Of a DNA stretch of 64,000 nt, positions 36,605-63,280 are shown piece after piece. The first letter of the stretch is position 1. Every line of letters starts with the position of its first letter. The translations under genes and the position numbers were made by a program. The stretch comes from Sphaerodactylus townsendi (taxonomy: Eukaryota). Where the stretch lies: positions 32,054,001 to 32,118,000 of the forward strand of contig NC_059439.1 in assembly GCF_021028975.2 (NCBI RefSeq). Reading direction: 5' to 3'. The notes under the pieces are model-generated. The model made no database searches and was not told the origin of the DNA. It saw nothing but the letters and a program-made list of their open reading frames with translations.

Positions 36605-39600
36605 TTATTTCATGTTAAAGACTTCTTGGATGCATTCCAGTGCCTGCTGTTTGGTCAATCTTGTCCAGTCCTTGGGAAGATCAGCAGGGAGAGCATGGTA
36701 CCTTTCAGCAAACTGTTGATTGAATTTTTTGAACACAAACTTCCAGTAATCCGAGGCTGTGATGCCTAGCATCAGGTTTGGATCGCCAAGTCGGGATAAT
36801 ACTGGCGATAATGTTTAAAAGGGTGCCATTTCCAAGCTGTGTCTTCATTGCTAAACTTTCTGTTTGAACTGACATCAGAAGAGCACAAGGAATAACAAAG
36901 TTTTTGTGTTTCATCATGACGATATAGCCCAAGCCCTTCAGGTCGATGGACTGATGAGAAGTGTTCTTGGTGATTGCTGCCTCCAGCTTCTCAGGGGACC
37001 TTACAGAAAGGACACTGCTTCCCACAGCCAAACACATGCTTGAAGATTTCGTCCCGGGGCTTGAATGGAATGTCTGCAAGTATTTTATTAGTGCTCATCT
37101 TAGAGCGTTCTAAAAGAATGTCTTCTACCACTGTGGGGATACAGGCCTGTATCTCGGCTGAGAAGGATGCAGCATTGGCAGTATTGTTGAATAGGATGAG
37201 TACCAGGCGATCCTTGGAAATGACGAGCTCTTTACCCATCTCCTGGCAAAAATGCTCCAAGAATTCAGCCAAAGTCTGAGGTTGGTTCTCACATCTCTCC
37301 AGAACTTCTATAGCTTTCTTCATTGCAGTAGACAGGATTCGACGCTCCAAGATGGCTAGTCCTTCCCTCTGTCTGTAATGGTCTAAGAGGCGTGTCTGTA
37401 TCCAAGATTTCACAAACGTCTCATATGTGTTTATATAGTTGACATAGTCATCGAATTTCTCCTCTTCTAGCAGTGTCCTCTGAACTGTGAACTGAAAGAA
37501 GCTCCTGCTTCCATACTGGAGGGATTGCTGGCTGCTGAGGAGATCATCTACTATCTCAATCCCAAGTCTCTGGAGGAGGTGGTCCACCAGAAGCCGGGAT
37601 TACTCAGACACAGATCGCAAAAAGCCTTGGCTCTTTTCTGACAAGCGTCCTTCTCATAGTACAGATCTTTGAAGGTGGATAAATACTGTGGTTTGAGCTT
37701 TTCTAGACGTTGGTGAGGGTTGTTTGCCTTGAAGTAATTGATATGCATCTCCTGAAAAGCATCAGCTGCTTCTCCTAGAATGAAATATTTCAGATCCACT
37801 TCAAAACGAATGTTATAGTGAAGCTTTTGAAAATCTTTTTTTTCTTCAAACATTTGGTTAGTCCCAGTCTCAGCTAACCCACTGCAATACGTTTTCATCA
37901 CTTAGTCTCCTCTTGTGTTGACTTTCTCCATGACACTTAAGCTCCTCACAGGTGCGAATCAGGGATTTGACCTTCTCCTCTATTGGTTGTTTATAATTAA
38001 TAAATAATAGATCTTTTGCTGTTCTTATGAATGATTTTTCTAGATATGACTCTTTCACAACGAAAGGATTTTTGGAACGGGCTGCAAAGCCGGGTAACTT
38101 CTGCAAGAGCTGGTTGGCCAAGCTGCCGTGTACTTGAAGGTCTTTTCTGAGCTGAAGCTGAACATCTGTGTAAACGTCACGATGTCTGAAGTTACTAGGT
38201 GGCAATTCCAGTAAGCTCTCCTTCCACATTTTCTCAAATTCCTCTTCCAGATTCAAAGAAGTCAGCTGGCATTTCTCCCTTTTACACTCTTCTAGGAGCT
38301 TGTTTACTTTCCCTTGCATGGTTTTCGCATACGTAGCCTGAAGACTGTCTATTTTATGCTGTCCCTTGCGTATGAGAACGGCCTGCTGATACTTGTTGTT
38401 GAAATTGTTTTCCAACTGTTTCCGGAGACCCTCAGCATTTCTGATTAAATTTTCTCTATACTTCTCTATGAGATGCAGGTACTGTCGGTCACTTTCAAAA
38501 TAGCTTTGTATGCACTGTAATATCTTTTGCTGGCCATTGAACAATTTCTGATCAGTCTCAAGCCTCAACTTATCCAATGCATCAGAGTCAATATCTCCTA
38601 GAGACTGATTCTGAATTGTGGTTTCAGCTTTGACTACATACAGATGCATCTCCTTCTGGAAATTCCATTTCCATTCTGAATTCTTCACAGAGAGCTGGCT
38701 GTAAGCATTAGCTTTGAGGCTGTTACGGAAGCTAAAGATAAAATTTTCATGTTTTACAGCATTCCACAAGCTTCTCACCCGTTCAAGAAACTGGAGGATG
38801 TCTTTGGAATGTCTGTTTTGGGAGCTGGTCTTCATAAATTCAAACAGAGATCTTTTCAAATCTGACACACTCTCGCTGTATCCCATGTTTACTAGAGCCA
38901 TGGGTGGGACTCCGTGCCACAAACCAGGGATATACCAGGTGTGTTTTTCCAGATTGTATTCCATAACATCTGAAAAGGAAACTTCCCTGCATTGTTTCTC
39001 CATTTTCGCTGCAGCTCTGGTCATTTCGTTGAGCTGTTCTAGGAGAAGTTTCCTGTCCCTCATGTTTTGATCATGGGCCAAAACATCACTGACGTTCTGG
39101 TGGACGAATTGGCAATTGGGTTTGTGCCCAGTTTCCTCCATCCTCAGAAAAGCGTGGACTACAATTTGCAGGATGTCCTTCATCTCCGTGGTATTCTCCA
39201 TGGCCAGGTTCACAAGGGTTATGTCACTCAGTCCGATCACTAGGGTGGCCAACTCATTGTCATGTTCATAGCTGTCCTCCAATGTGGCTAGCTTGGGGGC
39301 TTTCAAGCCTTCTGTGTCAATCACCAAGATGAAATCACAACTGAGCTCTTGCTGGAAGTTCTCTGACACTCTTAGGAGGCTCATGAAGGCCCCTCGGGTA
39401 CATCGGCCACTGCTGACTGCAAACTGCAGCCCAAACATAGTATTAAGAAGGGTGGATTTGCCAGTACTCTGGACACCCAATACTGTTAGAACCTTCATCC
39501 TGGATTTGCCCCCTACTTTGGAATGAAGGGCAGTCAAAACATCCGTTATCCATTGCAGGGGGATGTTCGATGCATCTCCATCAATCAGCTCCATTGGAAA

Positions 39601-41306
39601 TCCTTCTAGCATCAGGTCAGCAGCGATTCCTGGTAAGTGCACAAACTGTCTGTGTCTTTCAATTGTCTTGTCTTCCTTTGCCATCATGTACTCTGCTTCA
39701 TAAAACTGCCCCAGCTCACGCATGAAATGTTCTATGCCTAAGGAACTGGCGGAAATTAATTCATCCAGCTGTACCAGCTGTCCCGGATCATTTCCAGAAT
39801 TCTGATAAAGTTCTTTATACTCCTCTCTTAATTTTGACAAGTTTGCCCTAGCAACGGAATCCAGGTTGAACTTCAGCCGTTTCAGAAAATAATGTTTCTC
39901 CTTTGAGTGAAGGTGTTGCATTCCATTAATAAATGTTGTTATTCCATTAGTGAGGTCGCATTGATTCTGCTGGTAACGTAAGTCTATCAGTTTCTGTCTG
40001 AGCTGAGACTTGTAATCTTCAGCGGATGTATCATCTTGCCATTTCATCCTGCACCATTCTTTCTCCACTTTGGTCAGGTTTTTCCACAAGTCCCCCTGAA
40101 GTTTCAGCATTTTCTTCTTGTAGACCACAACATCTTTTATTTCTTCAGTAATTTCATTGGCGTGTAAAATTCCAATTTGACAGGTCTGTCTTTCTTCATC
40201 AGTCGGGATTCCCAGTTCTTGGCTGACCTTTGCCATAACTTCTATACTGACCACCTTTTGTGGAGAGTTAACAATGTTCCTTATGGTTGACCGGAACTTT
40301 TTCACAAATTCTGCGGTATTTTTGTTCTTCTCTTTCACCAGTATTTGTGATTTGGTCAGGCTCAGCAATGGTGCAAGTTTGTTCAGGAACCTCAGGGTTT
40401 CCTTTGATTTCTCACCATCAACATTCAAGATTAAATAATATTTAGAAGCCGAGCCCTGGAGAGTTGCCAGCATGTCACACTGTTTGTCAGACATGTTCTC
40501 TGCAATGATGAACACAGCTGATGAGACCACTGTTAAAAATCTGAACTGTGGCCAGTATGACTCAATGTCCCCCCGGAGATTCGTAAAGGCCACAGGCTCA
40601 GGGAAAAGATCTGATTTTTCCCTCCCTCCAGGAAAATACCAGGAGATTTCTACCAGCCCATCACTGATCTCTCGTGGCGCACTCCCACACTCCATATCCC
40701 TGTGAACAAAGAAGTCATGGTGTTGCTGAGTGGAGCTGAGGACCTCATTGAGAAGCTTGGATTTGGAGAAGCTGGATCTGCCCATCCGTACAACGGAAAT
40801 GGTAGGCATGGATGTTCGTACCAGGCTCTCCTCTCTAAAGCCTCTCTTCTCTACCAGGCAGTGAGGCCTCCATTTTCTCACAATGTCCCGAAGGGCCCAC
40901 AGCATAAAGATGCGCTTGGGAGGCGGCAAAATCAAAGGGAGGGCAAACTGACACATGGACATTTTGAGAAAGATCTCCTGATGAAGGAAGCTATCGGAGC
41001 AAAACAGGACAGCACAAAGGACATCAAGGGGGTTTACAGAACCTCCATAGTCCATCCCCCTCAAGAAAAAATCCTCATCATTGATATCAACCTCTTCATC
41101 TTCATTATCCTTTGGTACAAGGTCTGTATTTCTGGCTGTTCCACTGAGGGCCATCAGTTTTCTCAAGAAGTGCCAAGGTAAATCTTCCAGCGTCTGAGGA
41201 GGTACAGTTGTGAGGATGTCTGGGTTGATTTCCAAGACTTCTCCCATGGTGAGTTTCTTACTGCTTCGATCGTGGAGACCCAGCTTCATCAGGAAGCTCT
41301 CAACTC
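36605..41306 (-). CDS. Large exon of a URGCP/VLIG-family (GVIN1-like, interferon-induced very large GTPase) gene; frameshifted in its 3' 1.3 kb as assembled
   Basis: 1139-aa ORF with URG4-type motifs (LPWHFLRKLMAL, NPLDVLCAVLFCSD, MSMCQFALPL), G1 GVQSTGKS (39454-39477), GRCTRG and G3 DTEG (39307-39318). It continues in shifted frames through GCGKQCPFCKVP to ASDYWKFVF...QEVFNMK* (TAA at 36605-36607). Phase-1 acceptor tttttcacgatag precedes 41306. Confidence 0.9.
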
Positions 41307-41604
41307 CTATCGTGAAAAAGAAGGGCAGTTGTTATTTGTGAGGTATGAAAACTTTGTAAGAAGAAAATGTGCCGGGGGCAGGGGAAGGCTGAGCAAGAGG
41401 GGAGAAAGTGAGAAGCATTTTCAGATAGAATCAAAGAGTTGGAAGAGACCACAAGTGTTGGATGTTACAGCCTTGCATGCAGCAGCAGCACGGAATTCTG
41501 GGAGATCTTNNNNNNNNNNNNNNNNNNNNNNNNNNNNNNNNNNNNNNNNNNNNNNNNNNNNNNNNNNNNNNNNNNNNNNNNNNNNNNNNNNNNNNNNNNN
41601 NNNN

Positions 41605-42320
41605 CTCTGGGAAAAGATCTGAATTCTCCCTCCCTCCAGGAAAATACCAGGAGATTTCTACCAGCCCATCACTGATCTCTCGTGGCGCACTCCCACACTC
41701 CATATCCCTGTGAACAAAGAAGTCATGGTGTTGCTGAGGGGAGCTGAGGACCTCATTGAGAAGCTTGGATTTGGAGAAGCTGGATCTGCCCATCCGCACA
41801 ACGGAAATGGTTGCCATGGATGTTCGTACCAGGCTCTCCTCTCTGAAGCCTCTCTTCTCTACCAGGCAGTGAGGCCTCCATTTTCTCACAATGTCCCGTA
41901 GGGCCCACAGCATAAAGATGCGCTTGGGAGGCGGCAAAATCAAAGGGAGGGCAAACTGACACATGGACATTTTGAGAAAGATCTCCTGATGAAGGAAGCT
42001 ATCAGAGCAAAACAGGACAGCACAAAGGACATCAAGGGGGTTTACAGAACCTCCATAGTCCATCCCCCTCAGGAAAAAACCCTCATCATTGATATCAACC
42101 TCTTCATCTTCATCTTCCTTATCCTTTGGTACAAGATCTGTATTTCTGGCTGTTCCACTGAGGGCCATCAGTTTTCTCAAGAAGTGCCAAGGTAAATCTT
42201 CCAGTGTCTGAGGAGGTACAGTTGTGAGGCTGTCTGGGTTGATTTCCAAGACTTCTCCCATGGTGAGTTTCTTATTGCTTCTCTTGTGGAGACCCAACTT
42301 CATCAGGAAGCTCTCAACTC
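41605..42320 (-). CDS. Second tandem copy of the URGCP/VLIG exon, 5' ~715 nt only (truncated by N gap)
   Basis: Near-identical to the 5' part of the first copy, with the same acceptor and ~120 nt of shared intron; 8 aa substitutions and a 2-aa indel. Confidence 0.85.
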
Positions 42321-44126
42321 CTATCGTGAAAAAGAAGGGGAGTTGTTACTTGTGAGGTATGAAAACTTTGTAAGAAGGAAATGTGCCTGGGGCAGGGGAA
42401 GGCTGAGCAAGAGGGGAGAAAGTGAGAAGCATTTTCAGATGTGTGTCAGGAAGTTATGTAATCCTTGAGAAGCTACCTTTCCTGTGTCAGCCTGTGTGCT
42501 GGTTGTAATCAGAGGACTGCTTGGTAGGCCCTCTTTGCAAGATGATATAATTTTGTCAGCAAGAAGCAGGGTCTTTCTACAGTTGCCCTTTTTTTCTGAA
42601 AAGAAATTTGCTCTCCTCCCAAGAATACAGTGGCAAAGCGCCAACAGGGCGGGGAGGAGCACCCTGCCCCAGGCACACACCATTGGGATCACGTGGGGAG
42701 CTGCTGCCCCGCAGACCCCTTCCCCTCCCCCCTGCAGTGCCCCCCAGTACCTCGCTTGCATAGGCTTTTGGCGGGACCGTCACGCCTTTAAATAATTTGT
42801 CCCGCGTCCCGCGGGTTCTGCAAATTGTCCTGATTTTTGGGAGGCGGCCGCACTGCCGTCTGGGGCGCAATGCAGTGCGGCAGCCTCCCGCGCGCCCGGC
42901 TGTAGGAGTGCCCGGCCTTCTGGGGCTTGCCGTTTGCCGCCCTGTGATAGGGCGGGAAACGGCAAGCCCCACAAGGCAGTGCGTTTCTACGGCTGCGCGC
43001 GCGCGACTGCTTCCCCGTCCCGGATCACAAAAGTGACCATCTGGTCACCTTACACTTGCAGGTCTCCAGGAAAGTGTAGTTCCCACCAGGAGAGAGGAAA
43101 TAAAGGGCAGGAGAGAGGAGCAAAGTTAAGTGGCATGGGCGTGGGGGTGGTCTGCTGAGGCTGGAGGGTAGAGTGCCCCTCTTCCTCTGAGAGAGATCCT
43201 CTCAGAGAGAGAGGGATTCTCAAGCCTCCAGGAGCAGTGCTTTTTAAAAAAAAAACCAAGAGAGAGGGTCCCTCTCAGAGAGAGAGATGCACTCCAGTCT
43301 CCTCTGCCCATAGATCACAGGACCATTGTTGAGATTTGTAATTTCAGGTAGTTTCTGTAATGTGATGGTGACTGTGAAATTACCTGGTGCAAAACATCAT
43401 TGTTTGGTCATGGTGAGGGAGGGCAATCACCTACACAGGATGGGGGGCAAAACTCAGATTTTGCCCCAGGCTCCATTTTTCCTAGCTCCGCCTCTGCAAG
43501 AATACCTTTTCTTTCAGCTTCCCTGGTCACAGCTTTTACACACATTGGGGAGGGTATGTGTGAAAAGATGGGACAGTCATTCCACTCTGACTTCTCACAG
43601 CTGGTTGTGTATCTGGTTTGATACTTCCAGAGGCGTAGCTAGTAAAAATGGAGCCTGGGGCAAAATCTGAGTTTTGTGGGGGGGCCCCGCCCCCTCCATA
43701 TGGGCAGCCACCCTCCCCCACCATGACCAAACAACATTTTTTGCACCAGGTCATCTCAAAGTCATCATCACATTATAGAACATACCCCAACACACAAATC
43801 TGAACACACCCAGGGCTCCCTAGTTTAAACAACATTCAAAGTGATGCTATTTTTTGAAGGGGGGGAATCTTCATAGGTATATCACAGAGTGAAGTCTGTT
43901 ATACACTGTGTCCAGACTTCTCTTATAACAGACTTCTCTCTGTGATACACCCCTGAAGATGCCAGCCACAGATGCAGGCGAAATGTCAGGAACACGATCT
44001 ACCAGACCACGGCCACACAGCCCGGAAAACCCACAGGAACTAGTTGAATCTGCTTGTGAAAGCCTTCAACAATATTTTCAATGTTTTTTTAATCTAGAAA
44101 GTCCAGATTCTCCCTATAAATCCACT

Positions 44127-45084
44127 TTAAGGGTATTTAATGCCAAGGTGTCCCAACAACTTCTCTATGGGGTTTCCCTATGGATCGAAGCCTGGCATAT
44201 ATCCTTGGAGCGAATACAATCTAAATTTTTATATAAGCTTTTTGGGGTCCCCCATTGTGTACCCTACGCCGCCCTCTGCCTCAAGGCAGGATTACACCTC
44301 TTGGAAACAAAAGCATGGTGGGCCACCTTTAAATTTTGGATTCGGTTATGTTTCCTTAACAACCCTAACAGTCTCATTTATTGCACCCTCCACGAACTTC
44401 AATCTTCTACCTGGTGGGCTCATATCAAATCAAAGATTTCCTCCCTGGGTCTTTCTTGGGACCAGCTCCTTATGCTTTCTCCTAGCGAGATACAACGTTG
44501 TATCAAGGTACGGCTATTCGACCAGGAACACCAATATCTAGTTAGTAAAGCAAGGAGCTTGTTCTCTCCCCTCCATTTTAACATCATGCCCGGGAAATGC
44601 AAGACAGCTGTATATTTAAACATCTTGTCTGACTCTAAGTTGAGGTGGCTATTGACCAGAGCGAGAACCAACACATTTCCACTAACCTTTTCCCCAGAGA
44701 GATTCACGGTACCTTCACAGCAAAAGCGTACCTGTGAATACTGTCAAACCCCTGAGAAGTCATTGGAGCACATTTTATTAGTTTGTCCAAAATTTAACGA
44801 TTTTAGACCAAACCTGTTTTTAGGGGATCCCTTACTGGTCCATCCAAGCCTTTTTAATCTTAAATTGAACTATCTTCTGAATACAGAGAATCCCAAGCAA
44901 TTGGACATAGTGGCCAAATTCTTGCTCACTATTACGAAATAATTTCCTGGTCTCCTCTTTCGCTCTGATGTATGCATTTTTGAAACAGGAGTACCTGTTT
45001 TATCTTGTAAAACTGTATTTGGATTACTTAGCTCTGCTATGTTTTAATGCCTAATAAAGGTCTTTGAACTTGAACTTGAACTTG
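44127..45084 (+). mobile_element. LINE 3' fragment (RTE-X-like) with (GAACTT)n tail
   Basis: ORF homologous to the C-terminus of the 29383 LINE; TSD-like aaatccact at both ends. Confidence 0.8.
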
Positions 45085-46999: not shown

Positions 47000-47165
47000 A
47001 GGAATACATAAGTTATGTAGTCGATTACTCTCCCATTAGACCCGAGAATCCAGGCCCCGGCATTCCAAGTATTCCTGGTGTCGGTGTTCCTCGGGGTCTT
47101 CCCACCTGAAGTATCCCCACCCGATCTATCCACCAGAATTTCGGTCCCATCCAGACCACCAACAG
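47000..47165 (+). CDS. FBN1: FBN1 proline-rich exon (classical exon 10), indel-damaged
   Basis: tttccag|AG GAA TAC…KLCS…PIRPENPGPGIPSIPGVGVPRG…|gtaaaa; lies directly before the EGF4 exon as in FBN1. Confidence 0.7.
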
Positions 47166-48135
47166 GTAAAAATAAATCAGAATTCAGTATTTTGCACGGT
47201 TAAGATTTCATCCCTTTTAAAGGGGTGTTTGTTCTGACTCCTGTAATTTCCTTATCTTTTCCCACAAGCCAAATACCAGATGGTTGCCTATTGAGGTCAG
47301 TGTTCTGAAGGTGTGACTCTGCCTAGAATATATCACTCTGAGGGCTGTCTCTGGGCCTTTCCCCACTTACCTTGGCCAGCTATGAGGGGAGAGTTGCGTG
47401 GGGTCCCCAGCACTCCCACAACAGAAGGCGTGACAAGCAGCCCGTGACGCCACTGTAGCCCCTCAGCCGCTGGCATCCAAAAGCTCTCTTACCAAAGCCT
47501 TTGATGACCCGTGCAGTGGGGTGCGCCTGGGATGCAGCAGCTGAAGCAGCCACCCAGCGGCATAGAAGGATCAGGAGTGAGTGAGAGAGCGCCTATGTGA
47601 GATGGTAGCAGAGCAGAATGCTTTTAGTTTCAGATGTATGCCGCAAAGTCATCATCTTTTTTTGAAGCAACTTTTATTTTTGCAGTAAGAAGGCTACAAG
47701 AGAGGAGAAGATTCAAACGAAGGAAAAATAAGTAGACACCAACAGACATAACAGTAACAATAATATAATTTTGAAAACATAATCTTATCAGAATTAAGTA
47801 TTAAATAGATTTGTGTTCATAGTCTTGTAAGTTTCTTTGTCATACTGATAAAGATGAACTAGCAATTGCTGGTGTACTGGATAGGAACAACCTTAGTCAT
47901 TAATTATTTAAGCAATCTAATTGATCCATCTTGAGAAGGCTTTGAGAACGGTGCTTATGGCCAAAGGGCAACTGTATGTGTGTGACAGCCGTGAAGCAGG
48001 AGAAATTGTGTCGCAAGATCACTGCCCAGTAAGTGCCCCAATATGGTTCTTACTAGAGATGTGTGCCAGTATTCGGTTCAAATTACGAACGTTGACCGAA
48101 TTTTTAACCTTTTCTTATTTATTTCTCCGTTTCAG

Positions 48136-48279
48136 GGGTTTTACCCGTTAATATCCTCGCCTCGAGTAAACTTCTGCCAGTTATATATCAAAACCTCTGC
48201 ATTAATGGTGCCAACCCTGGAAGTTATCGTTGTGAATGTAAAAAAGGATTTGAGCTGGATCTTCGCGGCGAATGCATCG
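48136..48279 (+). CDS. FBN1: FBN1 EGF-like exon (classical exon 11), indel-damaged
   Basis: VLPVN…NFCQL…LCING…PGSYRCECKKGFELDLRGECI, matching FBN1 EGF4; canonical splice sites. Confidence 0.88.
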
Positions 48280-48973
48280 GTATGGGATTTTTCTCTCCTG
48301 GATTTCCCTAGCTTTAAAAAAAATGGCAGATTGCTGTAATACCCCCACGTATAATATTTATTCTTACTGCGTTTTAATTTAAACTAGTTAATAAAAGAGA
48401 ATCTGTCTCCCACCACAATGAGTCCACTTTCACAGGGACTTTTCTTCCTCCGTGTTGTTAACAAATTGTTTGAGAAAGTTGCGTCCTCCCCTATTCGAGT
48501 TCTGCATGGTCTGTCGCTTAGCATGTCCATGTTGATCTCTTGTTTATAGTCCAAAAGTAAAATTGTAAAATATCTTGTGCAGAGTTTGTTAGTCTGTTCT
48601 GTGGAGGTTCGATATAGTGTGTCTAGGGACTTTCTTGAAATTCAGAGTAAAAGAAACCGGTGTGGTTGAGGTGTGTTTTGAGGGTCACCTGGATAAACTC
48701 TTATTTGTGTAAGGAAACAGTGTAGCATATGTTCCCGGACCTGGTGTATGGAATTTTCCGACTAGAATGTTGTATAACATAGAACGACATTGAGGAGGAA
48801 AATAAATATTCCTAAAGTTTGAGGGTTGCATAACACAGTTTATTTTTTTTAATTTAATTGTTTGTGCAACTGTTTTGCCTACGTAAAACAAATTACTGAA
48901 AGAACCTTCCAAAACTGCCAAACTAACTAATGGCTTACTAACGGGGGGGGAAAATACTATCTGTATGTTTCAG

Positions 48974-49093
48974 ATGTCGATGAGTGTGAAAGAAACCCCT
49001 GTATCGGTGGAGACTGTGCTAACACACAAGGGTCTTACATTTGTCAGTGTCGTCCTGGCTACCAGAGTACGCTGATGAGAACAGAATGCCGAG
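48974..49093 (+). CDS. FBN1: FBN1 cbEGF exon (classical exon 12)
   Basis: 120-nt phase 1-1 exon encoding [40 protein letters not shown]; intact. Confidence 0.93.
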
Positions 49094-50154
49094 GTATGCC
49101 TCTGTGTAAATCAATTGTTTATTTAACAGGATGAATAAATAAACTCTCGTTTCCGGTCACGGTCGGTTCCCAAAGTGGTCTACAATTAAAATCCGTTGCC
49201 ATATGCAATACAAGTATGTGTGGATAGAAAGGGGGAGAAAAGTTTGTCGACTGTTCCAAAGGATGAAAGATCAATGGGGCAATCCAAAGCATAGTTACAC
49301 CCTTCTAAGCAGTGGTGGGATCCAAAAATTTTAGTAACAGGTTCCCATGGTGGTGGGATTCAAACTGTGGCGTAGCGCCAATGGGGCTGGTAGGCCCGAG
49401 GTGGGGCATGGCGGGCATTCCAGGGGCAGCGGGGAGGCATTCCTGAAGCGGGGCTGTGGCTAAGGGCTGCCCGGCGCTTAGCCCGATCGCAGGTGAAAGC
49501 GAATGCACACAGGCAGGCTGCCACCTGCGCCCGGTGTACCTCCTGCTGGAGCTGCTTCAAGTTCTGCTCACTACTGCTGGGGAGGGGCGTAACTAAAGGC
49601 AAAAATCACATGGCGGAAATCACCAATTACAGGGCGGCTTTTGGCACACACAAATAATTAGTAACCTACTCTTGGGAACCTGTGAGAACCTGCTGGATCC
49701 CACATCTGCTTTTAAGCCCATTGATGCTGATGGAAGGGTGTAATTCTGGCTGGGATCGCACGGCAAATGACATACGTGCATATGGCATCAATCCGTACAA
49801 TCAAATCTTGCGTTGAGAAAATCTGGATGTGTGTGTGTGTGGAGAAATTATTATTGGAGCGGGCAGAAGGCCCTTGAGATATCTGGACCCCTTGAGGGGA
49901 TGTGTTTCTCTGAATCAAAAGCTGGCATCATTACCCCAGTGCTGTTTGTGAAACAGAGGCCCTTTCTGCACGGGCGGAATACAGCACCCCAGGGACGGCA
50001 AAAACGCCGTCCCTGGGGAAGTGTTTGCACAGGAGCGACATGAAGCCGCCGCTTTAAACCTCGCTCATTGAGTGAGCTTTTTGAAAAGCAGCGTCTTCCC
50101 CATTGCCTCCACTTACCTGCCTCTCCAGTGCCGCTCTGTAGGGCTGCAGGGACC

Positions 50155-51100
50155 CAAATCCAAATCCAAATCCAAAAACCTTTATTAGGCATAAAACCAG
50201 TGCCAAGAATTTCAAATACAATAAAAGTCGGGCCGCTCAGCTTGCAATTTTTTGAGCAAAAAAACATAACAGCTTCCAGATATTTCCACACCTAAGAGCT
50301 ATTTTAGAAGCTTAGCCATTTTTGTTTTATCAGAGAGGAGCATAAATCCTGTTGGTAACACAGTTCTCAAATTGGTTCTGATGTTGTTGTACTTTGAACA
50401 ATGGAGCAGAATATGAGGAAGTGTTACAGTTGTATCAGGACAGAATTGACAGCGACAGCTCATCTTGTGGAATACCAGAGAATGCGACCTTGAAGATGTG
50501 CTGTGGCGGAAGAATTACACCTTGCTTTCTGGGTCATGACATCTGCTATTGTAATTAATAAGTTGTTGCAGATATATATAGCAGGGCTGAATTTTTCTGA
50601 GGATAATCCCAAAAGACTATTGGAGAGCAAAAGAGCATTATGCTTTGCTCAGGAGAAGTGGTACTCTTGATCAAATAATCTAGACTTTAGCGATGGTAAG
50701 TCTCGGGCGGTGAGCATTCAACCAGGGCCTCCCAAGCCCAAGGAAAGATCTTTTTCAATATGCCCAGCCACCATTTGAAAGCTGAAGCTCTCTCATTTCT
50801 AACTGGGACAAACTGTTAGGGTCAGTGCAAAAAACAAAGGCATGCCAAAACTTAAAAGTTACAACCCATGTCCTTGTTTCTAATAAATGTTGCCCTGATT
50901 CCAAACAAGAACACCATAGGGGACACAATGCGGGGTGCCAAAAGATCTTATAAAGGAAATTGGATTGGATGCTTTCCAATTTCTGGTGCCATGCTTGGAT
51001 CCAGATGGGGATACCATACAAAAGGTGCTGGGCCACCTTAGCGTTAAACACCTTCAACGCTGCTGGTATGAATCTACCACCATTGATGTTAAAAAACTTC
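50155..51100 (-). mobile_element. LINE 3' fragment, same subfamily as the VKORC1-intron LINE, indel-rich
   Basis: Reverse complement closely follows 30450-31365; (GGATTT)n tail. Confidence 0.85.
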
Positions 51101-53069
51101 AGGGCAGTCTGGGTGGGTCCCTGCAGCCCTCCAGAGCGACTCTGGACAGGCAGGTCAGTGGAGATGATGGACCAGATGCGGCTTCATGCAGAGCCGCCTC
51201 TCCGGTGTGGCAGATCTGCGGGGCTGCTCGCATGCTGCTGTGCGAGCAGTCCCTGAGCTTCCACCGGCATAATCATTTAATGCCGGTGGAGGTGAACTTC
51301 CATTACGTCTGGGGAAACAGCCAGAGAGCTGATGCTAGATGGAAAACTTTGCTTTATTTCATACTGCATAAGTGGCCAGAGAATTAAGCATAGCTGCACA
51401 ACGAAAGCATGGGTGAAGTCAGAATTCAGTGATTATCTTCTGTTGACTTTGCATTTGAAGGCCGAAGATGTAATGAGGGGAATCGTACACTTGGTTTTTT
51501 AAAAAGAAATTATAATAAAGGGCATGCACAGGGGAAAGCGAGATACAAAATCTCTGCTGGATTAAAGCTCGAAGAAACAAAAAATTAAAAGGCAAAGCCC
51601 AGAGAAAACAAGTCTAAGCAGTACTGGCGGAAAGCGAAAGGAGGGAGTCTCAGGAATGATACTGCCCTTTTGCCAGAAGGCCTGGAAAGAAAACCGCCAG
51701 TGCCTGGGTCAGATCGTTGGCTCTAGGGAAATAACCGCAGTTCCTCCAACGGCTTCACAGTGGAGCATTCAGGAGATGGGCCAAAGATATACAAACAAGA
51801 ACCTCTGATCTTATTTGAAGGTTCTGAGGAAGAGAAAAAAAAAATCAGGGGACTCAAAGCAGCGACCATTTGTTTTAAGACGGCAATTAGGCATTAGGAG
51901 GTTAAGAGCTCATGTATCTAATCTGGGAGAGGAACGGTTTTGATTCCCAGCTCTGCCACCTGAGCTGTGGAGGTTTATCTGGGAATTCAGATTAGCCTGT
52001 ACACACTCCCATCGCCAACTGGGTGACCTTGGGGTCGTCACAATTCTTCTGAGCTCTCTCAGTCCCACCCACCTCACAGGGTGTTTGTTGTGTGAGGGAA
52101 GGGCAAGAGAATTGTCAGCCTTTGAGTCTCCTGCAGGAGAGAAGGGGATAAATCAAACTCTAAGAAGAAGCAGCAGCAGCAGCAGCAGCAGCAGCATTTA
52201 TTGTCATTGTGCACGCACAACGAAATTTTTCAAGCATTCCCCAATGCACACTATTTCGAAGAACCTCACACCCCATCCTCAAATTCACCTTCACTCACCC
52301 ATCCCTACACACACAGCCCACGAAACACATCAACACGAAACCATGGAGTTCAGCATAGCCACAGCTGTAGAATAGAAGCTATCTCTAAGCCTATTTGTCC
52401 TTGTTTTTATAATCCTATATCAGTGGTGGTGAACCTTTGGCACTCCAGATGTTACGGACTACAATTCCCATCAGCCAATTGGCCATGCTGGCAGGGGCTG
52501 ATGGGAACTGTAGTCCATAACATCTAAGGTGCCAAGTTACCTCGATCTATCAGTGATGCGAACCTTTAGCTCAGATGTTATGGGACTACAATTCCATCAG
52601 CCCCTTCCAGCATGGCCAATTGGCCATGCTGGCGAAAGGCTGTCTAAAGGCTTTAGCATCCCCTTAACATCTGGAGTGCCAAATTATATTAATCCTATAT
52701 TGTGGTCCTGTCTCGTCTCCCAGATGGTAACAGTTCAAGGCATGGGATGAGATGGGTCCTTCAGAATATTCTGAAGTTTCTTTAGGCGGGAATTATAAAG
52801 TTCTTCAAGGAGGGCGTAATAACCCTCTGGGCGGTAGTATTAGTACCCTGGAGCACCTTCCTATCTGCCACTGTGCAACTGTCGTTGAATTGCTGTACAT
52901 TAGCAACTGTGCATTAATTGCTACCCGGTAGGAAAGCGGCTCAGCATAAAGTTATTTAGGCGGCTGGTAAACCGTGCTGTTGTTGCAGGGGATGGAATGA
53001 GGAAGACTTGATATAGGCCAGCGCTGGCCAGCAGTACTATGCTCTTCAAAATTTCATAAACTGGCAGCG

Positions 53070-53800
53070 ATGAGTATTTCAGGTAACGTTAATTACTGGC
53101 ATGTTCACCGAGAACTGTTTAGTTCTATTAGTCGCCGGGTTTTATTTGAAGCCATTGATGCAGCCAGTGCTTTTAGTGAAGGGGAGCTCAAACTGCCCAA
53201 GGAGGCTGCTGATGCAGTTCTACAAGAGGAATCATTGAGTCTGTTATCTGCTCTATAACTGTGTGGTTTGGTTCTGCAGCCCGGCAAAGTCGACACGGAG
53301 CTTCAGAGATAATCAGAACTGCAGAAAAACAATTGCTGCTAACCTGCCTTCCATTGAGGACCTGTATGCCGCGGGTCAAAAGGGCTGTGAAATATTTACT
53401 GACCCCTGCATCCTGGACATAAACTGGAGCAGCTCCTTACCCTCTAAGCATTATTTTAGAGTATGCACCAAGACAATAGACGTAAAGGTAGTTTTTCGAA
53501 TGCCATCACTCTGTTAAACAAATAATTCCCTCGATAATGTCAAACTATTTGTGCCATATTTGGCCATAATTGCTTGCTACTTTTTTTCGTAATTTCCTAT
53601 TACCCATCTCCTCCCAATTATGACTGTATGACTATGGCCTGTTAGCGACATTTCGTTTTATTTTATGATGTTACATTCACAATGTTTTTTATTACTACTG
53701 ATTGCTTACTAGACCTATACTTAGGCGATAGGTAGAGATTAACGTACCTTATGATTCTTGACAAATGTATTTTTTTCTTTTTTAGCTACCTGAGGCATGT
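53070..53800 (+). mobile_element. Rex1/Babar-like LINE 3' fragment, degraded
   Basis: KLPKE…QFY…IIES…TVWFGS-like translation; an inverted related piece lies near 52200-52900. Confidence 0.5.
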
Positions 53801-54858
53801 AGGAGACGAGTATTAGTGTCCAATCACANNNNNNNNNNNNNNNNNNNNNNNNNNNNNNNNNNNNNNNNNNNNNNNNNNNNNNNNNNNNNNNNNNNNNNNN
53901 NNNNNNNNNNNNNNNNNNNNNNNNNNNNNNNNNNNNNNNNNNNNNNNNNNNNNNNNTGGGCCACATAATTTTAGATTACTTTTTTTTTTACACACACATT
54001 CTAATGGATTTTAACATGATCTGCAGCCTGCCTTCCACTTAACAGCTTTTATTTGTGGCATTTTGTTTAAATCACTTTAAACTGTTTTATTTGGGTGATA
54101 TTTGGGTGACATTTGGGTGACAGCTGGGATAAAAAACATTCAAAATTAGTTCATGTTCCTCTGATTCAAGGCGTCTTAATCACGTTATTCTGGCAAAATT
54201 ACAGAACATATGGCGGCTTTTTCTTTGGACTACCGCGTTTCAGTCTCTCAGCCTTAACATTGGCTGGACAGCACCGGTGCCACCGAATGATAGGCACAGC
54301 AGTAGGCAGTTATGTTTTGAATTAGACGGTGGGGCTTTCCCCACTGACAGAGATTTGAACTGGTTTGCACTGCGGTTCACCTCAGTGAATCCCACTGCCA
54401 CCGAGCTCCAGCATTGTTTGTCTCGATTCCCCACCCTCAGAGACACAGCTGACATCGCTTGTGGCGGTTATGAATACTTTCTGCGGAACAAAGTCGATAC
54501 CGGCCGAAGTGGGGAAACATCGAAGCGACACCTCATCCGTTCAACCAATCGAGCAGCATCGCCAGAAGCAGAATTAGGTAAGCGGAGCAGAAAAGCGCAT
54601 GTAACTGTAAACTGTAAAACTGTAAAACGCTCCTGTTTCCAGCTGCGGCACACAGGGTGCCAATCCCTGCGATCGAGGAAGCCGAAATAGGCACCAAAGA
54701 CCGATCCTGCCGCTTAAAGCTCAGACTCCGGGGGGGCCAACTCAGTTGCTGTGGGGACGGCCAGCCGCAGGAATATTTTCACTGAAGGGGACGAATTCGA
54801 TATGGCTCCCTTCTGTAGTGGGGAAAGCCTCATAGACTGCTGTTTTGTTCTGTTTCAG

Positions 54859-54979
54859 ATATTGACGAATGCTTGCAGAATGGCCGGATATGCAACAATG
54901 GCCGATGCGTGAACACAGATGGCAGTTTCCACTGCGTTTGCAATGCTGGCTTCCATGTCGCGACGGAAACTGTAGCCGA
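54859..54979 (+). CDS. FBN1: FBN1 cbEGF exon (classical exon 13), 3' end garbled
   Basis: [34 protein letters not shown], then deletions in the expected RDGKNCE tail. Confidence 0.9.
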
Positions 54980-57900
54980 GTCAGGCTCCCCTGCTCCTTT
55001 ATTCATGCCTTCCCACCCGCTTGTACCTTTGTGGGAACGAGTGTGTTTGTTCCTCAGTATGATTTGCTAGCCAAGGTCACAGCTGTTCCATAAGACCCAA
55101 AATATTGTTTAGTAACCGGCATCTGAATTCCATCTTCGATCTCAGGTAGAACCCCTCCCAACATTCTTCCATACAATAAAGATCCAAGAAAGGGCTGCCT
55201 ACTAAATCATGGTTAGATTTGCTTCTTGGGGGAATGGTCCATGGTTAGGAAGAGGTAGAGTCCTAGTTGGTCCAGATTATGAAAATCTGGCAGCTTTTAT
55301 AGATGGCCTGGGAGAGCAAGGACTGTAGTAAAATGGCCACTTGGCTTGCAGAAGGTCCCAGGGTTTGGCCCCACTCCTGTTTAATCTTGGCCGAAAGCAA
55401 GATGGTGTGAAAGTCTCAGTGATCAATAATGAGTAGATCAGTGGTCACGGCTCGGTATGAAAGCAACTTCATATTGCCCATGCATGGTAGCAGTGGTTAG
55501 GCAGGTTACTCTAATCAGGAACAGGGCAGGTCCCATTTCTGCCACTTGACTGTGACTTATCACGGGGGAACCAGATTAGCTTGTGCACCTTAACACATGC
55601 CAGCTGGGTGACCGGGCTGAATCACAGTTCTTCGGGCTTTCTCAGCTCCACCCACCTCACAGGGTGTTGGTTGTGGGGGCGGGAAGGGGTGTAAGCTCCT
55701 TTGAGTTTCCTTATAGGAGGGAGATATAACTCCTNNNNNNNNNNNNNNNNNNNNNNNNNNNNNNNNNNNNNNNNNNNNNNNNNNNNNNNNNNNNNNNNNN
55801 NNNNNNNNNNNNNNNNNNNNNNNNNNNNNNNNNNNNNNNNNNNNNNNNNNNNNNNNNNNNNNNNNNNNNNNNNNNNNNNNNNNNNNNNNNNNNNNNNNNN
55901 NNNNNNNNNNNNNNNNNNNNNNNNNNNNNNNNNNNNNNNNNNNNNNNNNNNNNNNNNNNNNNNNNNNNNNNNNNNNNNNNCGCTGACCTGCTCTGACTTA
56001 CTGTTTTTTAGCAGACATTCCTTTCAGCAATAATTGAGCTTCCTTGCAGTTCCCATCTTTGGTCAATTAAGGGTCAGGGGTGTCGCACAGGATGCAATTT
56101 CCACCATCGTGGTTGTCAAACACAGTAGCCGTTGTCATCAATTGCGAGGAGTCCTGTTTATAATGGGCAATGTATCATTTCACAGAAACCGTGTAGTAAC
56201 TTATATCTGAAGACTGCGGTTTATAATCATAGAGGCAGTATGTGCAGAAACTGTTCTAGTTGCATATTTACATCCTGAATTCCTGGTTTTGTTGTATGTT
56301 AACAACATCCCCGAGCAGGGATCATATTACCTTCAATGGCGATACCAAAAAATTGTGTCTCTTTGATAAAATGCGGCATAAGTTGATTCCTTCTTACTTC
56401 CTGAACCTCTTAGCCTTTCAAAGTGAGGGGAACAGTGAGAGTGCTCTGTTACCATATTTCCCAAAGTCCTTGGGAAGGTTTCCTGTAGATCGCTCCTTGA
56501 TAAAAATTCAGGTGCTGGTCACAGAAGCGGTTTTGAGAATGCTATCTCCAGTGATTCAACCCGAAGATTTAATGCAAAATTCCTATTTGGGATAGATAAA
56601 CATTTTCTAAATCATAAATTATTTTTTTGTCTGGCTAAAGAATGCAAGTTGAAATAAAACAGGCCATGTCTAGAAGAGCCGTTTCGCGGCTCCTGTACCC
56701 ATTTCACGGTTTGTCAAGGTAGCTATCAAAATAAACATATCGTATTTATCTGGAAACCTGACTTGCTTGCGCTGCGTTTGAATTCCTTTTCCCCCTCCAC
56801 CCCAGACCAGATCCCCATGTGGTAACAGTAATAAGAAGCAGTACAGCGGTACAGAAGACGATCTGCTAAAACATTTTCGTTCCATTGGCGCGAAACGTGC
56901 GGCGTATGCGTACATCAGCTTTGAAATGTTGCCTGTTACCATAACAGCCGGATTTCATATAAGATTCAAGCTGCGTATTGCTAGCGTAAAGGCGATGCTG
57001 AAAAGCGAGAATGAAAGACAGTAGGAGTTAAGCTTTATATGACCCCCAAATGTGTCCTTCTTTTTTGAACTTTTTTCCCCTGCTGCCCAATTAAGTTAAT
57101 AACTGCAGAAGATTAATTTTAAAGGTGCGTTGGGCGGGGTAGGAGACCTTTAACACTCAAAGAGCCATTTGGACCCGTTTTACACAGAAAAAACACTTGG
57201 AGCCACAAATAATTTTTGACATTTAAAAATAAAGGTAACACTATATATGGGGTTTTTTACCTTTTACTCCGCTCATTCTAAGAAAGCGCATGGATGTGCC
57301 AGCCCTGCTGCCTGTAAAGAGGGCAAAAGGGATAAAGAACGGAATTGGCTCATTTCGTGGAATTACACAGTGCAAAAGAACGAAGAGCCGCTAATAAAAC
57401 AACCAGGCGGTGGTTTCCCTACCCTGGAGCTAAGACGTGAAATGCTCGTAGCATAGCCTCCAGTTCTTCTGAAAGATTTACATGGGAGTTAAGCATCGAA
57501 TTTGGTAAGTGGCTTTCTGGCGGTAGGAGTGAAGCAAGTAAACTGCGGTAATTAATTCATATCCAGTCAGGGCAAGCGATGCGGTGTCGAAGAGCGCGCC
57601 GAGTTAACTCCATTGAGTAGACTTTAAGACGGTGATGAACCTATGGCACAGGTGCGGGCGCAGGCCTCTCTGTGGGCGCACCGCACAAGGAGTTAGATCG
57701 TAATGAGCGGAAAATCCACACACACACCACGCTTCTAGGCTGGCCTGGGCCGCTGAAAGGCACAATGATGCGCAGCGGTGAGCAGGAAGGACTTGGCTGG
57801 CGGGCCTGGTGCCTGTGCTCAGTTGGCTGCTACCAGGGGAGGCATGAAGGAGGCAGAGATGCTAGAGAGGCACAGGCCCGATTTATTACACAGGACTGCT

Positions 57901-60125
57901 GGAGGCTAAGAGCAGGCTGGCCCTGCTCGGGATCCTTCCCCCTCTGTAAGTCATCCACTCGCGAGACCAATCAGGGTGCTAACACAGACTCCCGTTTCAC
58001 ATCCGGATTAACTTCCTAGTGGTTGGTGTGGCCCCTCAATAAACTACGTGTTCTCTCTTTCTGGGTATAACTTTTGGTCTCTCTCTCAGAAATGGGAAAG
58101 AAGGATGTTAGAAACGCAGCTTTAAGATTCCTTAAAAGAACTTGGACAAATTTGATGAAAGCAGCAAAGTTTTATTGTTTTATAATACGTTTTTGCAAGA
58201 GCGAGCGTCTTAAAACAAATAGGCACACCCGAGAGCAATGAGCAGCATGATTAATTTCAGTTGTAACAAGCCTTTATTGGCATAAAATAAACATACAAAA
58301 TAAGCATACAAAATTTGCCCATTATTGCTCACAGTTATAGACGCTGGTACTAAAATATATACATGGTCCTTCTGTAACTATAGGACATTCCTTCAGCTAA
58401 GTTGACTCACTTAAACGTCATCGGATACTGACAGAAGCTAGAAAAATTACTGCTGGCTATATGTGGTCATAATACATAGACATTGATTGGTATTCATCTA
58501 GACTTACGTCTATTATCGTTAGCAGAAATTTTGCTACATTCTCGCACACTGTGGGATCCATGTTGTTCAAAAGCATAGGTATCTTAAGAGCATCGGTTAG
58601 ATTGTTATACAGAAATGGGATAAGTGCAGTCATAATATTCTGATTTTTGCAAACCTTTACAATAATGAAAGAGGGTATGATCGAGTGTCTCCACCTGACC
58701 CATATTGCATGGACATAGCCTCCTCTGTTTATCAATTTGTTGGTATCTGCCATAGAGCAGCATAGAAGGCATTAGATAGAATCTGGCCAGTATGTTAAGG
58801 CTCTTCTTAATTTAGGGTTGGTGATCCAATGTAAATAATTGCCCATGTGTCCTTGTTCAATTGGAATAAACAGGGTCAGGGGGGAACACATTTTCCTCAG
58901 CAGCCATTATCCATATCCCGATACTCTTGTTCCTTTGGGGGAGGCCCGGTATAAAGTGGAACAAATAAATAAATAAAATAAATAAATAAATAATAGCTTA
59001 GTTTTTTCAAGCTGCTATATGCTGCTATATGCTTTCAAGCAGCTATATGCTTCTGATAGGGAAAGAGGGACTAACGACTCTAATGAAAAGCCAAGAGCGT
59101 TGATTTTTCCCTCAACTAGTTTCAGCCACCTAGAATTTGCATAGTCAGAAAGCATGAGGTGTAGCAAACTGGAGTGATCCTGCAAATAGTGGATACGTAG
59201 CCACTAGCCAGTATCTGACAGTTCTCAGACAGGCCATTGTGGCATATGATATTTGCCCGAGTTCTAAACATAGGGCTGCATATGAAGCACAATTTGGTAA
59301 GCCCATAATTTTATGGAAAAAACGGGACTGGGCTGTGTTTATATTTTTGTTTATAGCTCCGATCCAAATTGGTGCTCCATAGAGGAGCTGAGAGCCGCAT
59401 TTAGCATTGAACACCTTCAATGCGGATGGTATATACTGGTGGCCCACAGTAAAAAAGAAACGCTGAATTGCTAGGGCACTGTTGTTAGCTGCAGCGAGTG
59501 CTAATTTCCTATGTACTGCCCAATTAAGGTTGCTGGTAAGAGTTATGCCCAAATATTTGAACTGGTTAACTTGTTCTATGGGTCTGTTATTGATGGTCCA
59601 TGTATGACTAGGGGGTCTTCTAGCGAAGACCATTATTTTGGTTTTTTCATAGTTAATTACCAGTTCGTTCTTCTTACAATATTCAGCACAGCAATTTAAG
59701 AGACGAGTGAGACCAACTTTAGTGTGGGAAAGAAGAACGGTGTCGTCAGCATAAAGTAACGCGGGCACGTGTTTAGCGCTTAGTCTGGGAACATGCCCAT
59801 TGGCCTTCTGGAGGGTTGGCACTAGATCACTAAGGAATATATTGAACAAAGTGGGGGCCAATGTACAGCCTTGTTTGACCCCTCTGGTTGTGATGATATT
59901 TTCTGTGAGCGGTCCTTTTGTTGCGGCTCTTATTCTACAGCTAGTGCAAGTGTATAGCTGTTTTATGAGAAACAGTAGTCTGGGGTCGATATGTAACGCC
60001 ATCAATTTTCTCCACAGTAGGGCTCTAGATATGGAGTCAAATGCCCCTTTTAAATCCAGGAAAGCTGCAAAAAGTTTACGGTTATTATGAGTTATACTTT
60101 TGTTAGCTAAGTGTGCTAAAACTGT

Positions 60126-60256
60126 ATTGTCGAAGGCTTTCACGGCCGGAATCACTTGGGTGCTGTGTGGTTTCCGGGCTGTATGGCCGTGTTCTAGCAG
60201 CATTCTCTCCTGACGTTTCGCCTGCATCTGTGGCTGGCATCTTCAGAGGATCAAAC
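60126..60256 (-). mobile_element. Penelope-like element terminal fragment with hammerhead motif, inserted in a LINE
   Basis: cctctgaagatgccagccacagatgcaggcgaaacgtcagga…gaaagccttcgacaat; 14-bp flanking duplication tgtgctaaaactgt. Copies near 12170-12290, 25715-25810 and 43930-44075. Confidence 0.75.
60208..60250 (-). ncRNA. Minimal type I hammerhead ribozyme motif
   Basis: UCCU-CUGAAGA-U-GCCAGC(CACAGAU)GCAGGC-GAA-ACGU-C-AGGA: stem I UCCU/AGGA, conserved core, stem II, palindromic ACGU stem III, GUC cleavage triplet. Confidence 0.7.
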
Positions 60257-60966: not shown

Positions 60967-61478
60967 CAGTGATGGAGAACCTTTTTGAGACCGAGTGCCC
61001 AAATTGCAACCCCAAAACCACTTATTTATCACAAAGTGCCAACACTGCAATTTATCCTGAATACTGAGGTTTTACTTTAGAAAAAACAGTTGGCTCCAAG
61101 GTGTGCGTTACTTGGGAGTAAGCTTGGTGGCAGTCAGTGGCTTTGCTTTGAAGCAACCGTACAACTCTTCCAACGGGTGAATCATGACCCTAGGAGGGTT
61201 TACTCAGAAGCAAGCCCCATTGCCAGCAAACAAGCTCACTCCCAGGTAAAGGATTGTGCTTTAATACTTTGCATGAAAATCAGTGGGGTTTAACAGCACT
61301 TAACAGGGTTACCTACACTGCTTCCCCAAAACTAGGTCTTAGGTTTAATGCTAATAATCGAGCCCAGCGGCCCAGGCCAGCCTAGATGTTGGGGGGGGGG
61401 GCACATTGTTTTTGCGTGCCCACCGAGAGGGCTCTGAGTGCCACCTCTGGCACCCGTGCCATAGATTCGCCACCACTG
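60967..61478 (-). mobile_element. hAT-type MITE
   Basis: Reverse copy of the same family; flanks tcctatgc-like on both sides. Confidence 0.8.
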
Positions 61479-62987: not shown

Positions 62988-63280
62988 CATTTCCTGGAGG
63001 CCACAGATCTGGAGGCAGATCTGGAAAGCGGCTCCTGATGCCTTCTAGGAACTGGAAGCAGGTCTTTTCCCCTTTCAACTGGACTCTGACCAAGAGTTTG
63101 CGGACCTTCTCCTCTGGGTCCAAAAGTTCATTTAAGGCAACATAATCACCCCCTGAGATAATGCCCTGGGCCACTGCATCATTCAAGATGTCATCAGGCG
63201 CTCTTTGTAGGAAGTTGATGAGCTTCTCGCAGCCCCTCAGGATTGTCTCGCGGGCCATGGGTGGGGGCCGAGACAACTGC
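62988..63280 (-). CDS. CARD-domain exon, CARD6-like
   Basis: ATG at 63258 gives MARETILRGCEKLINFLQRAPDDILNDAVAQGIISGGDYVALNELLDPEEKVRKLLVRVQLKGEKTCFQFL, resembling the CARD6 CARD (…DPDSILD…RKLLILVQKKGEATCQHFL, from memory). Acceptor tttcacaag, phase-1 donor G|gtgagt. Confidence 0.85.

Follow-up and report, generated by a model that had tools for sequence, protein, structure and literature searches.

A CARD exon and a large URGCP/GTPase exon of a putative immune GTPase gene in Sphaerodactylus townsendi

Results and Discussion

The window analysed here is a stretch of 64,000 nucleotides (nt) from the genome of Sphaerodactylus townsendi (contig NC_059439.1, positions 32,054,001 to 32,118,000), and all positions given below are those of the window. 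Its minus strand carries a CARD exon and a large URGCP/GTPase exon. Our reading, held as a whole with somewhat less than even confidence, is that they are parts of likely one cytosolic immune GTPase of ~1,720 residues, which would work by assembly and by clustering of its CARDs. The domains are real, the architecture is well supported and ancient and the assembly is damaged, the role in antimicrobial signalling being putative. It must be noted that the gene is not unique to the window, and that its orthologues are already present in automated RefSeq annotation.

The CARD Exon and the Large Exon

The first coding exon (63258..62988, minus strand) has 271 nt, that is, 90 codons plus 1 nt. It starts with ATG at 63258 and is closed by the donor G/GTGAGT at 62988, which is in phase 1, as the initial annotation had stated. 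Its 90-residue product matched Pfam PF00619 with 26.8 bits (E 5.5e-6), above the curated cut-off of 23.9, and is 67-73% identical to the CARDs of the gecko orthologues described below. The Pfam scan gave no PYRIN match on this exon, and a search of the ESM Atlas with the CARD returned generic CARD clusters only.

The main large exon (41306..37870, minus) begins at a phase-1 acceptor at 41306 and, as assembled, remains open until an out-of-frame TGA at 37870 that follows a break near 37944. It encodes first the URGCP domain PF25496 (41037..40147, minus; 379 bits, cut-off 27, E 1.7e-113), an alpha/beta domain which is the part common with mammalian CARD6, and then a helical linker and the GTPase domain PF25683, of GBP/atlastin/Sey1-type fold (40065..38875, minus; 669 bits, cut-off 55, E 3e-201). 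Hence the profile check proposed for a CARD and a VLIG-type G domain gave CARD, PF25496 and PF25683, all above cut-off. The GTPase motifs that had been read as intact are all present in this exon, on the minus strand: G1 (GVQSTGKS, 39477-39454), G2 (GRCTRG, 39408-39391) and G3 (DTEG, 39318-39307), and they are invariant from gecko to lamprey. A degenerate P-loop-like motif, GRSSFSKS, lies in the URGCP domain (40782-40759, minus). The first 1,120 codons remain open with the GTPase motifs intact. By both Pfam domains, the G1-G3 motifs and the fold, the gene is assigned to the URGCP/VLIG-type GTPase family, its binding and hydrolysis of GTP being putative.

Upstream of this exon there is a second, partial copy of its 5' end (42320..41605, minus), with a phase-1 acceptor at 42320, which is cut by an assembly gap of 95 nt between the two copies (41510..41604, a run of N). 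The copies share 96.4% nt identity over 836 nt, and differ in 12 synonymous and 7 non-synonymous codons plus a 6-nt indel. Both acceptors reported initially are present, near-identical and followed by open frames. The exon at 42320 was ruled out as an additional exon, since it repeats the 5' end of the main one.

The CARD and the GTPase as Probable Parts of One Gene

That the CARD and the GTPase form one gene, as initially proposed, is supported by single-chain orthologues, although the assembled copy is broken and its linker exon is missing. The GTPase search passed 1,022 proteins, the best 120 of which provide the figures below, and the search with the CARD kept 5 of its 213 candidates. The best full-length GTPase matches were gecko proteins of 1,710-1,724 aa with CARD, PF25496, PF25683 and tail. 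Four of the five CARD matches were those same proteins, and the fifth was a 188-aa model of CARD plus linker from Eublepharis. Since each half independently selects the same single-chain gecko proteins, CARD and GTPase can be considered one gene type. In addition, tblastn places the gecko orthologues collinearly on 63258-36608, and the phase-1 acceptor of the large exon is conserved and in frame with the orthologue linker.

The orthologues include XP_056720187.1 (Euleptes), XP_060112655.1 (Heteronotia) and XP_077170626.1 (Paroedura), which bear the names "up-regulator of cell proliferation-like" or "interferon-induced very large GTPase 1-like". Their layout of CARD, linker, PF25496, PF25683, helical stalk and Cys/His tail agrees with that of the window gene, with 77-82% identity over the main open reading frame (ORF) and 69-73% over the CARD. 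They differ from it in being intact models with a linker exon, whereas the window copy has no linker and a broken 3' end. Similarity to the window over the CARD and over the core was correlated (Spearman 0.76, n=81 proteins, a value inflated by kinship). The window CARD fell in a clade of 27 rows (SH-like support 99) of gecko, other squamate, turtle and alligator proteins, which are also the nearest by GTPase core.

Among the best 120 relatives, a precomputed CARD was found in 54, from 34 genera of lizards, turtles, alligators, tuatara and amphibians. A scan with the hidden Markov model (HMM) detected it in 60 of the 120, and in 56 of the 109 having G1 and the Cys/His tail. The joined models include multiple RefSeq isoforms. 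Logan contigs no longer than 5.3 and 7.5 kb (P0114 and P0342) encode a CARD-bearing relative of 1,667 aa; contigs of this size holding both parts suggest a single transcript. The same layout occurs in bamboo shark (P0140) and lamprey (P0184), and therefore the architecture is old. Judging from gene models, it is no lizard novelty, since it already stands in RefSeq and UniRef from lizards to lamprey under names that hide the CARD. In the titles and abstract openings searched, a body from which most subscription papers were absent, we found no paper describing a CARD-GTPase architecture. Taking these data together, we regard the CARD-URGCP-GTPase architecture as very probably real in geckos.

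Position in the CARD6, URGCP and GVIN Family

The main tree comprised 841 columns and 23 rows, in which GVIN was represented by four non-mammalian proteins of ~2,400 aa (not by human GVIN1) and CARD6 by two rodent sequences. The GVIN-type proteins formed a clade of their own (100/100), while marsupial URGCP and rodent CARD6 fell within the tetrapod CARD-GTPase radiation (100/99). The approximately unbiased (AU) test rejected a grouping of the window with GVIN (p 6.3e-5) and one of URGCP/CARD6 with GVIN (p 0.0002). On 386 common columns, a grouping of URGCP and CARD6 with GVIN was not rejected (p 0.114). Therefore, of the affinities suggested initially, that to CARD6/URGCP holds and the VLIG/GVIN type does not; membership of the GVIN1 type is rejected by the first of these tests, and the window lies on the URGCP/CARD6 branch. 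A sister pair of CARD6 and URGCP (SH-aLRT 94; 92/96 on 386 columns) was also set aside, as it is absent from the 841-column tree and may reflect long-branch attraction.

GVIN proteins share with the window gene the core of two large domains, identical or near-identical G1-G3 motifs, a related Cys/His tail and a GTPase part on one large exon. They differ from it in core identity (36-37%) and in that no CARD match was found in the 2,400-aa forms scanned (P0233 and P0250); human GVIN1 has an ORF of 1,808 aa. A size of 200-285 kDa is given for GVIN/VLIG proteins in a published account (PMC8286824), and the gecko orthologues stand at the lower edge of this range, the window product having 1,235 aa as assembled. 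Human GVIN1 had been taken initially for a pseudogene. This is contradicted by a preprint which reports it to be functional: it is induced by interferon-gamma, coats cytosolic Burkholderia thailandensis and requires co-factors (bioRxiv 10.1101/2025.03.24.645074).

CARD6 has in common with the window gene an N-terminal CARD (43-44% identical), the URGCP domain (38%) and its place in the same tetrapod radiation. In contrast to the window gene, which has PF25683, its similarity stops before G1, with no PF25683 in rodent CARD6 and no Cys/His tail, in agreement with the initial view that mammalian CARD6 is without the complete GTPase. Within the tetrapods, CARD6 and many paralogues branch in uncertain order. 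As it is not sister to the window lineage, it must be considered a relative and not a demonstrated one-to-one orthologue. It is reported to show positive selection (PMC4476151). Marsupial URGCP/URG4 has the URGCP and GTPase domains (44% identity over 866 aa) and belongs to the same tetrapod clade, but it lacks both the CARD and the tail, its chain stopping behind the G domain, and it shows G1 as GAEGTGKS, no GRCTRG and G3 as DSGG. No mammalian full-length form was present among the named matches, in a set where most representatives are unnamed and mammals are thinly sampled. The simplest reading of these comparisons is that the long CARD form is likely ancestral, and that mammalian CARD6 and URGCP would be its reduced descendants.

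Predicted Structure

The first 846 residues of the large exon were modelled as two alpha/beta domains linked by helices, with a predicted local distance difference test score (pLDDT) of 86 and a predicted template modelling score (pTM) of 0.90. Residues 566-846 of the model matched Sey1 (Z 21.7, root-mean-square deviation 3.1, 248 aligned residues), human GBP1 (Z 20.7, root-mean-square deviation 3.1, 240 aligned) and atlastin (Z 19). The G domain is thus predicted to have the GBP/atlastin/RHD3-type fold. GBP1, atlastin, Sey1/RHD3 and RNF112 all share this fold with it (Z 19-22), with only 13-20% identity. The window gene adds to it an N-terminal alpha/beta domain and the CARD, as well as a stalk and tail that resemble no solved structure clearly.

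The first alpha/beta domain has a conserved SKS at a P-loop-like position, which is also found in CARD6. Its counterpart is named a first LG domain in the GVIN1 preprint (bioRxiv 10.1101/2025.03.24.645074). When the profiles of the two alpha/beta domains were compared, only the P-loops aligned, and the result was not significant (probability 0.8%, E 0.07), and in fold searches with the whole model all matches were to the second domain. From its sequence, we infer that the URGCP domain may be a pseudo-GTPase. The last 733 residues of an orthologue were modelled as a long helical stalk and Cys/His tail (pLDDT 89). This C-terminal model gave no Foldseek match at E<=0.001, and its structural matches were only generic helical bundles (Z<=10.8).

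The Damaged 3' Part and the Missing Linker

The 3' part of the coding region, which encodes the helical stalk and the Cys/His tail (37945..36605, minus; natural stop at 36605), is broken in the window. Frameshift-aware alignment to three gecko orthologues gave identical events each time: frame breaks near 37944, 37592 (to 37601), 36789 and 36767, with a garbled stretch at ~37900-37850, all within the last ~440 codons. In addition, a TGA at 36993, within a Cys motif, replaces a Cys conserved in 5/5 orthologues. Because of the frame breaks and this stop, the Cys-rich C-terminus is out of frame with the GTPase, and not in frame as had been annotated. A direct splice of the CARD to the large exon yields 1,235 aa as assembled; the "full-length" CARD-GTPase of ~1,650 aa first announced is thus not borne out, the intact orthologues having 1,710-1,724 aa.

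The acidic linker of the orthologues (53-69 residues, ~65 aa; 23-31% Asp/Glu) was not found in the window by any of three methods. Sensitive tblastn with 8 orthologue linkers gave no match in the window. The best window match to a linker HMM had E 0.66 or worse, compared with 1.7e-27 for a held-out control, and none of 24 open phase-1/phase-1 candidate exons scanned in the window was acidic. The window contains five N gaps, three of them between the CARD exon and the GTPase exon, and the gaps at 53829-53956 and 55735-55980 could conceal the linker exon. A map of indels in repeats hints at additional gaps in the 46-56 kb region, a signal confounded by repeat type.

Four read sets (X1, X3, X8 and X12, the last one of RNA) were compared with the window at 36300-43300; the differences discussed are those listed in this comparison. 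X1 and X3 agree with the flanks (0-1 differences, depth 21-23), and their coding contigs have a depth of 55-87. This difference in depth indicates that the locus is multi-copy and was collapsed. In X1, and likewise in X3, the sole covering contig lacks the five extra bases at 37592-37601; base 37592 is also missing in 11/11 X12 reads and the pair at 37601 in 9/11, and X8 does not cover this site. The entire compared depth departs from the window at several further 3' sites. In a related organism, RNA reads extend over the coding part and the 3' untranslated region, mostly with 90-99% likeness, which shows expression of family members, no more. The pattern of differences between reads and window is expected under assembly error and under decay alike. 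As a whole, the data suggest that the 3' breaks are mostly assembly error in a collapsed cluster, with a decayed copy as the alternative, and an intact copy is probably present in Sphaerodactylus townsendi.

Proposed Mechanism

CARDs signal once clustered. Together with the coats formed by GVIN1 and the binding of CARD6 to RIP2, reported in PMC6949089, this makes a mechanism in which assembly clusters the CARD the one thought most likely. In this scheme, the CARD would be spliced to the GTPase via the linker exon lost from the assembly. The protein would be induced by interferon and form coats, by analogy with human GVIN1, and it would use its G domain and stalk to assemble, in a GTP-dependent manner, on microbes inside the cell or on membranes. 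The assembly would cluster CARDs carried on the flexible acidic linker, and these may recruit a CARD-bearing kinase or caspase of the RIPK2/NOD1 type, by analogy with CARD6. Built on such analogies, the proposal of assembly followed by CARD signalling is tentative, and we give it rather less than an even chance.

Alternative Explanations

A number of observations weigh against the reading proposed above, and they are considered here with the alternatives that they bear on. The alternative that survives best, although it is unlikely, is genuine decay or truncation of the window copy, as one paralogue of a birth-and-death cluster in which another copy encodes the intact CARD-GTPase. The product of the window copy would then have at most 1,235 aa and lack the stalk end and the Cys/His tail. 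At least four frame breaks and the stop fit this possibility. The TGA at 36993 is contradicted by about half of the depth in X1 and X3, by all of X8 and by 6/24 X12 reads, and the reads are compatible with a stop allele there. The 33 listed coding differences touch 30 codons, with a near-neutral ratio of 22 non-synonymous to 8 synonymous; of the 22 changed residues, 17 are closer to the orthologues in the reads and 3 in the window. Moreover, the branch of the window CARD is long (0.38 vs 0.02-0.07), as expected of a decaying copy, and further divergent copies exist (P0008). Nevertheless, where all the compared depth in the four runs differs from the window at 3' sites, the window alleles were not seen even though X1 and X3 fit the flanks. 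The breaks are clustered small insertions, the adjacent fibrillin-like exons are damaged too, and the long open 5' part of the exon, with its GTPase motifs, argues in the same direction.

Regarding mechanism, the main rival of clustering-driven signalling is an inhibitory CARD like that of NOL3/ARC. The protein would then be a GVIN1-like coat GTPase whose CARD, as an inhibitory or scaffold module, damps caspase or RIPK2 signalling or merely localises; we judge this a little less likely still than decay. The CARD of the inhibitor NOL3/ARC (PDB 4uz0) was the sole solved CARD matching that of the window at E<=1 (E 1.2e-9), and it is likewise matched by the CARD of CARD6 (E 2e-15), so that both are far nearer to NOL3/ARC than to other solved CARDs. 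The Eublepharis model of CARD and acidic linker is annotated "nucleolar protein 3-like". NOL3/ARC, a short CARD protein not known to have a GTPase, carries an acidic tail after its CARD, in the same order as in the orthologues. CARD6 is reported to activate as well as inhibit NF-kB, and its knockouts to show no defect in the NOD pathway (PMC6949089). On the other hand, in some relatives PYD or FIIND-PYD takes the place of the CARD, and in others the CARD occurs in up to three copies, and such N-terminal swapping is typical of activating sensors (NLRP1, CARD8 and RIG-I). As a separate observation, NOL3 may stem from 5' exons of the CARD-GTPase family.

It is very unlikely that the exons are expressed separately, as a short CARD plus linker protein and a CARD-less GTPase starting at an internal Met (41289), with the joined models as artefacts or minor isoforms. 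This possibility draws on the Eublepharis annotation, which has a separate CARD protein (P0121) and a CARD-less GTPase (P0005), and on the models of the window locus itself. The RefSeq model (P0298) lacks a CARD; it runs the two copies together, passes over the breaks and terminates at the stop. Another model (P0002) is CARD-less as well, and both are identical to the window over the matched parts. About half of the best 120 relatives have CARD-less models, and all orthologues are gene predictions without published function in the literature searched. Three gaps and a foreign block lie between the exons, and no loose read end was seen at 41306 or 42320 among the rows listed, the CARD donor being >20 kb away. 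Against separate expression stand the joined models of 34 genera with multiple RefSeq isoforms, the Logan contigs with both parts, the large-exon acceptor, whose phase 1 is conserved and whose frame fits that of the orthologue linker, and the parallel ranking of proteins by CARD and by core similarity.

The least probable option is a GTPase of the atlastin or Sey1 kind, which would remodel membranes as a housekeeping function and have no immune role: Sey1 is the top structural match (tied with GBP1) and a long helical stalk follows the G domain, but the lineage-specific multi-copy expansion, the swapping of death-fold N-termini, the C-terminal model made up entirely of soluble-looking helix and Cys/His tail, and the role of GVIN1, the closest relative of this core to have been studied, as an interferon effector (bioRxiv 10.1101/2025.03.24.645074) all argue against it.

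Swappable N-Termini on the Same Core

The scan covered 48 of 150 representatives, which were picked for their long N-termini. CARD was found at E<=0.001 in 8/48 (4 above cut-off), FN3 in 7, kinesin in 4, PYRIN in 2 (one with FIIND), B-box with FN3 in 3, RING in 1 and a weak MACPF in 1. Among the best 120 relatives, Ig domains were present in 5 and PYRIN domains in 5, and some have two or three CARDs.

Several of these forms deserve mention on their own. A kinesin motor, with FHA in three cases, is fused to CARD, URGCP and GTPase in P0131, P0133, P0146 and P0147 (Bombina, Xenopus tropicalis, Phyllobates and Hyperolius), and an older Xenopus annotation splits the kinesin part from the CARD-GTPase part; these frog fusions, if real, would represent a motor-driven immune GTPase. 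P0158, from Pogona vitticeps, has a CARD-like domain, FIIND and PYRIN before the URGCP/GTPase core, an NLRP1/CARD8-like module. The VLIG-type P0176 (Logan, 2,234 aa) has its weak MACPF match (E 1.6e-4) at residues 120-272, just above cut-off. The same core follows N-termini with B-box and FN3 (Sardina), RING (Polypterus) and Ig (turtles) among P0182, P0190, P0222, P0247, P0067 and P0097.

It is conceivable, though on the unlikely side, that these proteins are overlooked vertebrate immune sensors switched by a GTPase, parallel to the NLRs. A constant chassis of pseudo-GTPase, GTPase, stalk and zinc tail would polymerise on microbes and carry swappable N-terminal output modules. The CARD form would be ancestral in vertebrates and expanded in reptiles and amphibians, mammals keeping only a crippled CARD6, URGCP and possibly NOL3/ARC.

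Other Features of the Window

Inside the presumed intron between the CARD and the GTPase exons there are four fibrillin-1-like exons (Pro-rich, EGF and two cbEGF) on the plus strand (47000..54975), which are not part of the gene; three of the four are damaged in length or frame. Pfam confirms cbEGF in two of them, Pfam and PDB giving generic cbEGF only, and we take the block to be FBN1 from its exon order. Being without the remaining gene, it is likely misplaced, error-rich sequence.

Downstream of the CARD-GTPase, on the same strand, lies an intact three-exon VKORC1-type gene (32650-27379, minus; Pfam VKOR), followed by the two final coding exons of a FUS-like gene (21130-20818, minus), which begins at an N gap and is so named from motifs that we take to be those of FUS. 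Other FUS motifs were not found in the window. As the remainder of FUS is missing and only ~6 kb separate it from VKORC1, the local order may be scrambled. The initial annotation had placed the gene near FUS and hinted at PYCARD/PYDC1; FUS and VKORC1 are PYCARD neighbours in human. The proximity to FUS stands insofar as its last two exons are present, but nothing ties the window CARD to PYCARD: ASC is absent among the PDB sequence matches listed for this CARD, NOL3/ARC being the only one at E<=1. A relationship to PYCARD/PYDC1 was therefore dropped.

Open frames of 337-595 aa that resemble reverse transcriptase, presumably of long interspersed nuclear elements (LINE) to judge from their motifs, occur at 29221-31008 (plus), 43929-44942 (plus) and 59145-60242 (minus), with a gap-rich copy within the fibrillin-like block (50166-51102, minus). 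A GC-rich stretch at 8200-9200 (minus) has a signal-peptide-like first exon ending near 8770, and a 56-nt exon-like segment at 24795-24850 (minus) shows strong splice signals in a CpG-rich patch.

Implications

The public model of this locus omits the CARD, merges two copies and splices round the breaks, which calls for caution in the use of the genome. Giant GTPases have gained a function only recently, through human GVIN1. If the protein works as proposed, coat-forming giant GTPases would be tied to death-fold signalling in one chain. If this is true, it would also supply an intact ancestral form for comparison with CARD6 and URGCP, two puzzling mammalian proteins, with respect to both their losses and the role of their common domain. 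In this way, the old question of CARD6 and URGCP would become testable with one cloned reptile or shark cDNA.

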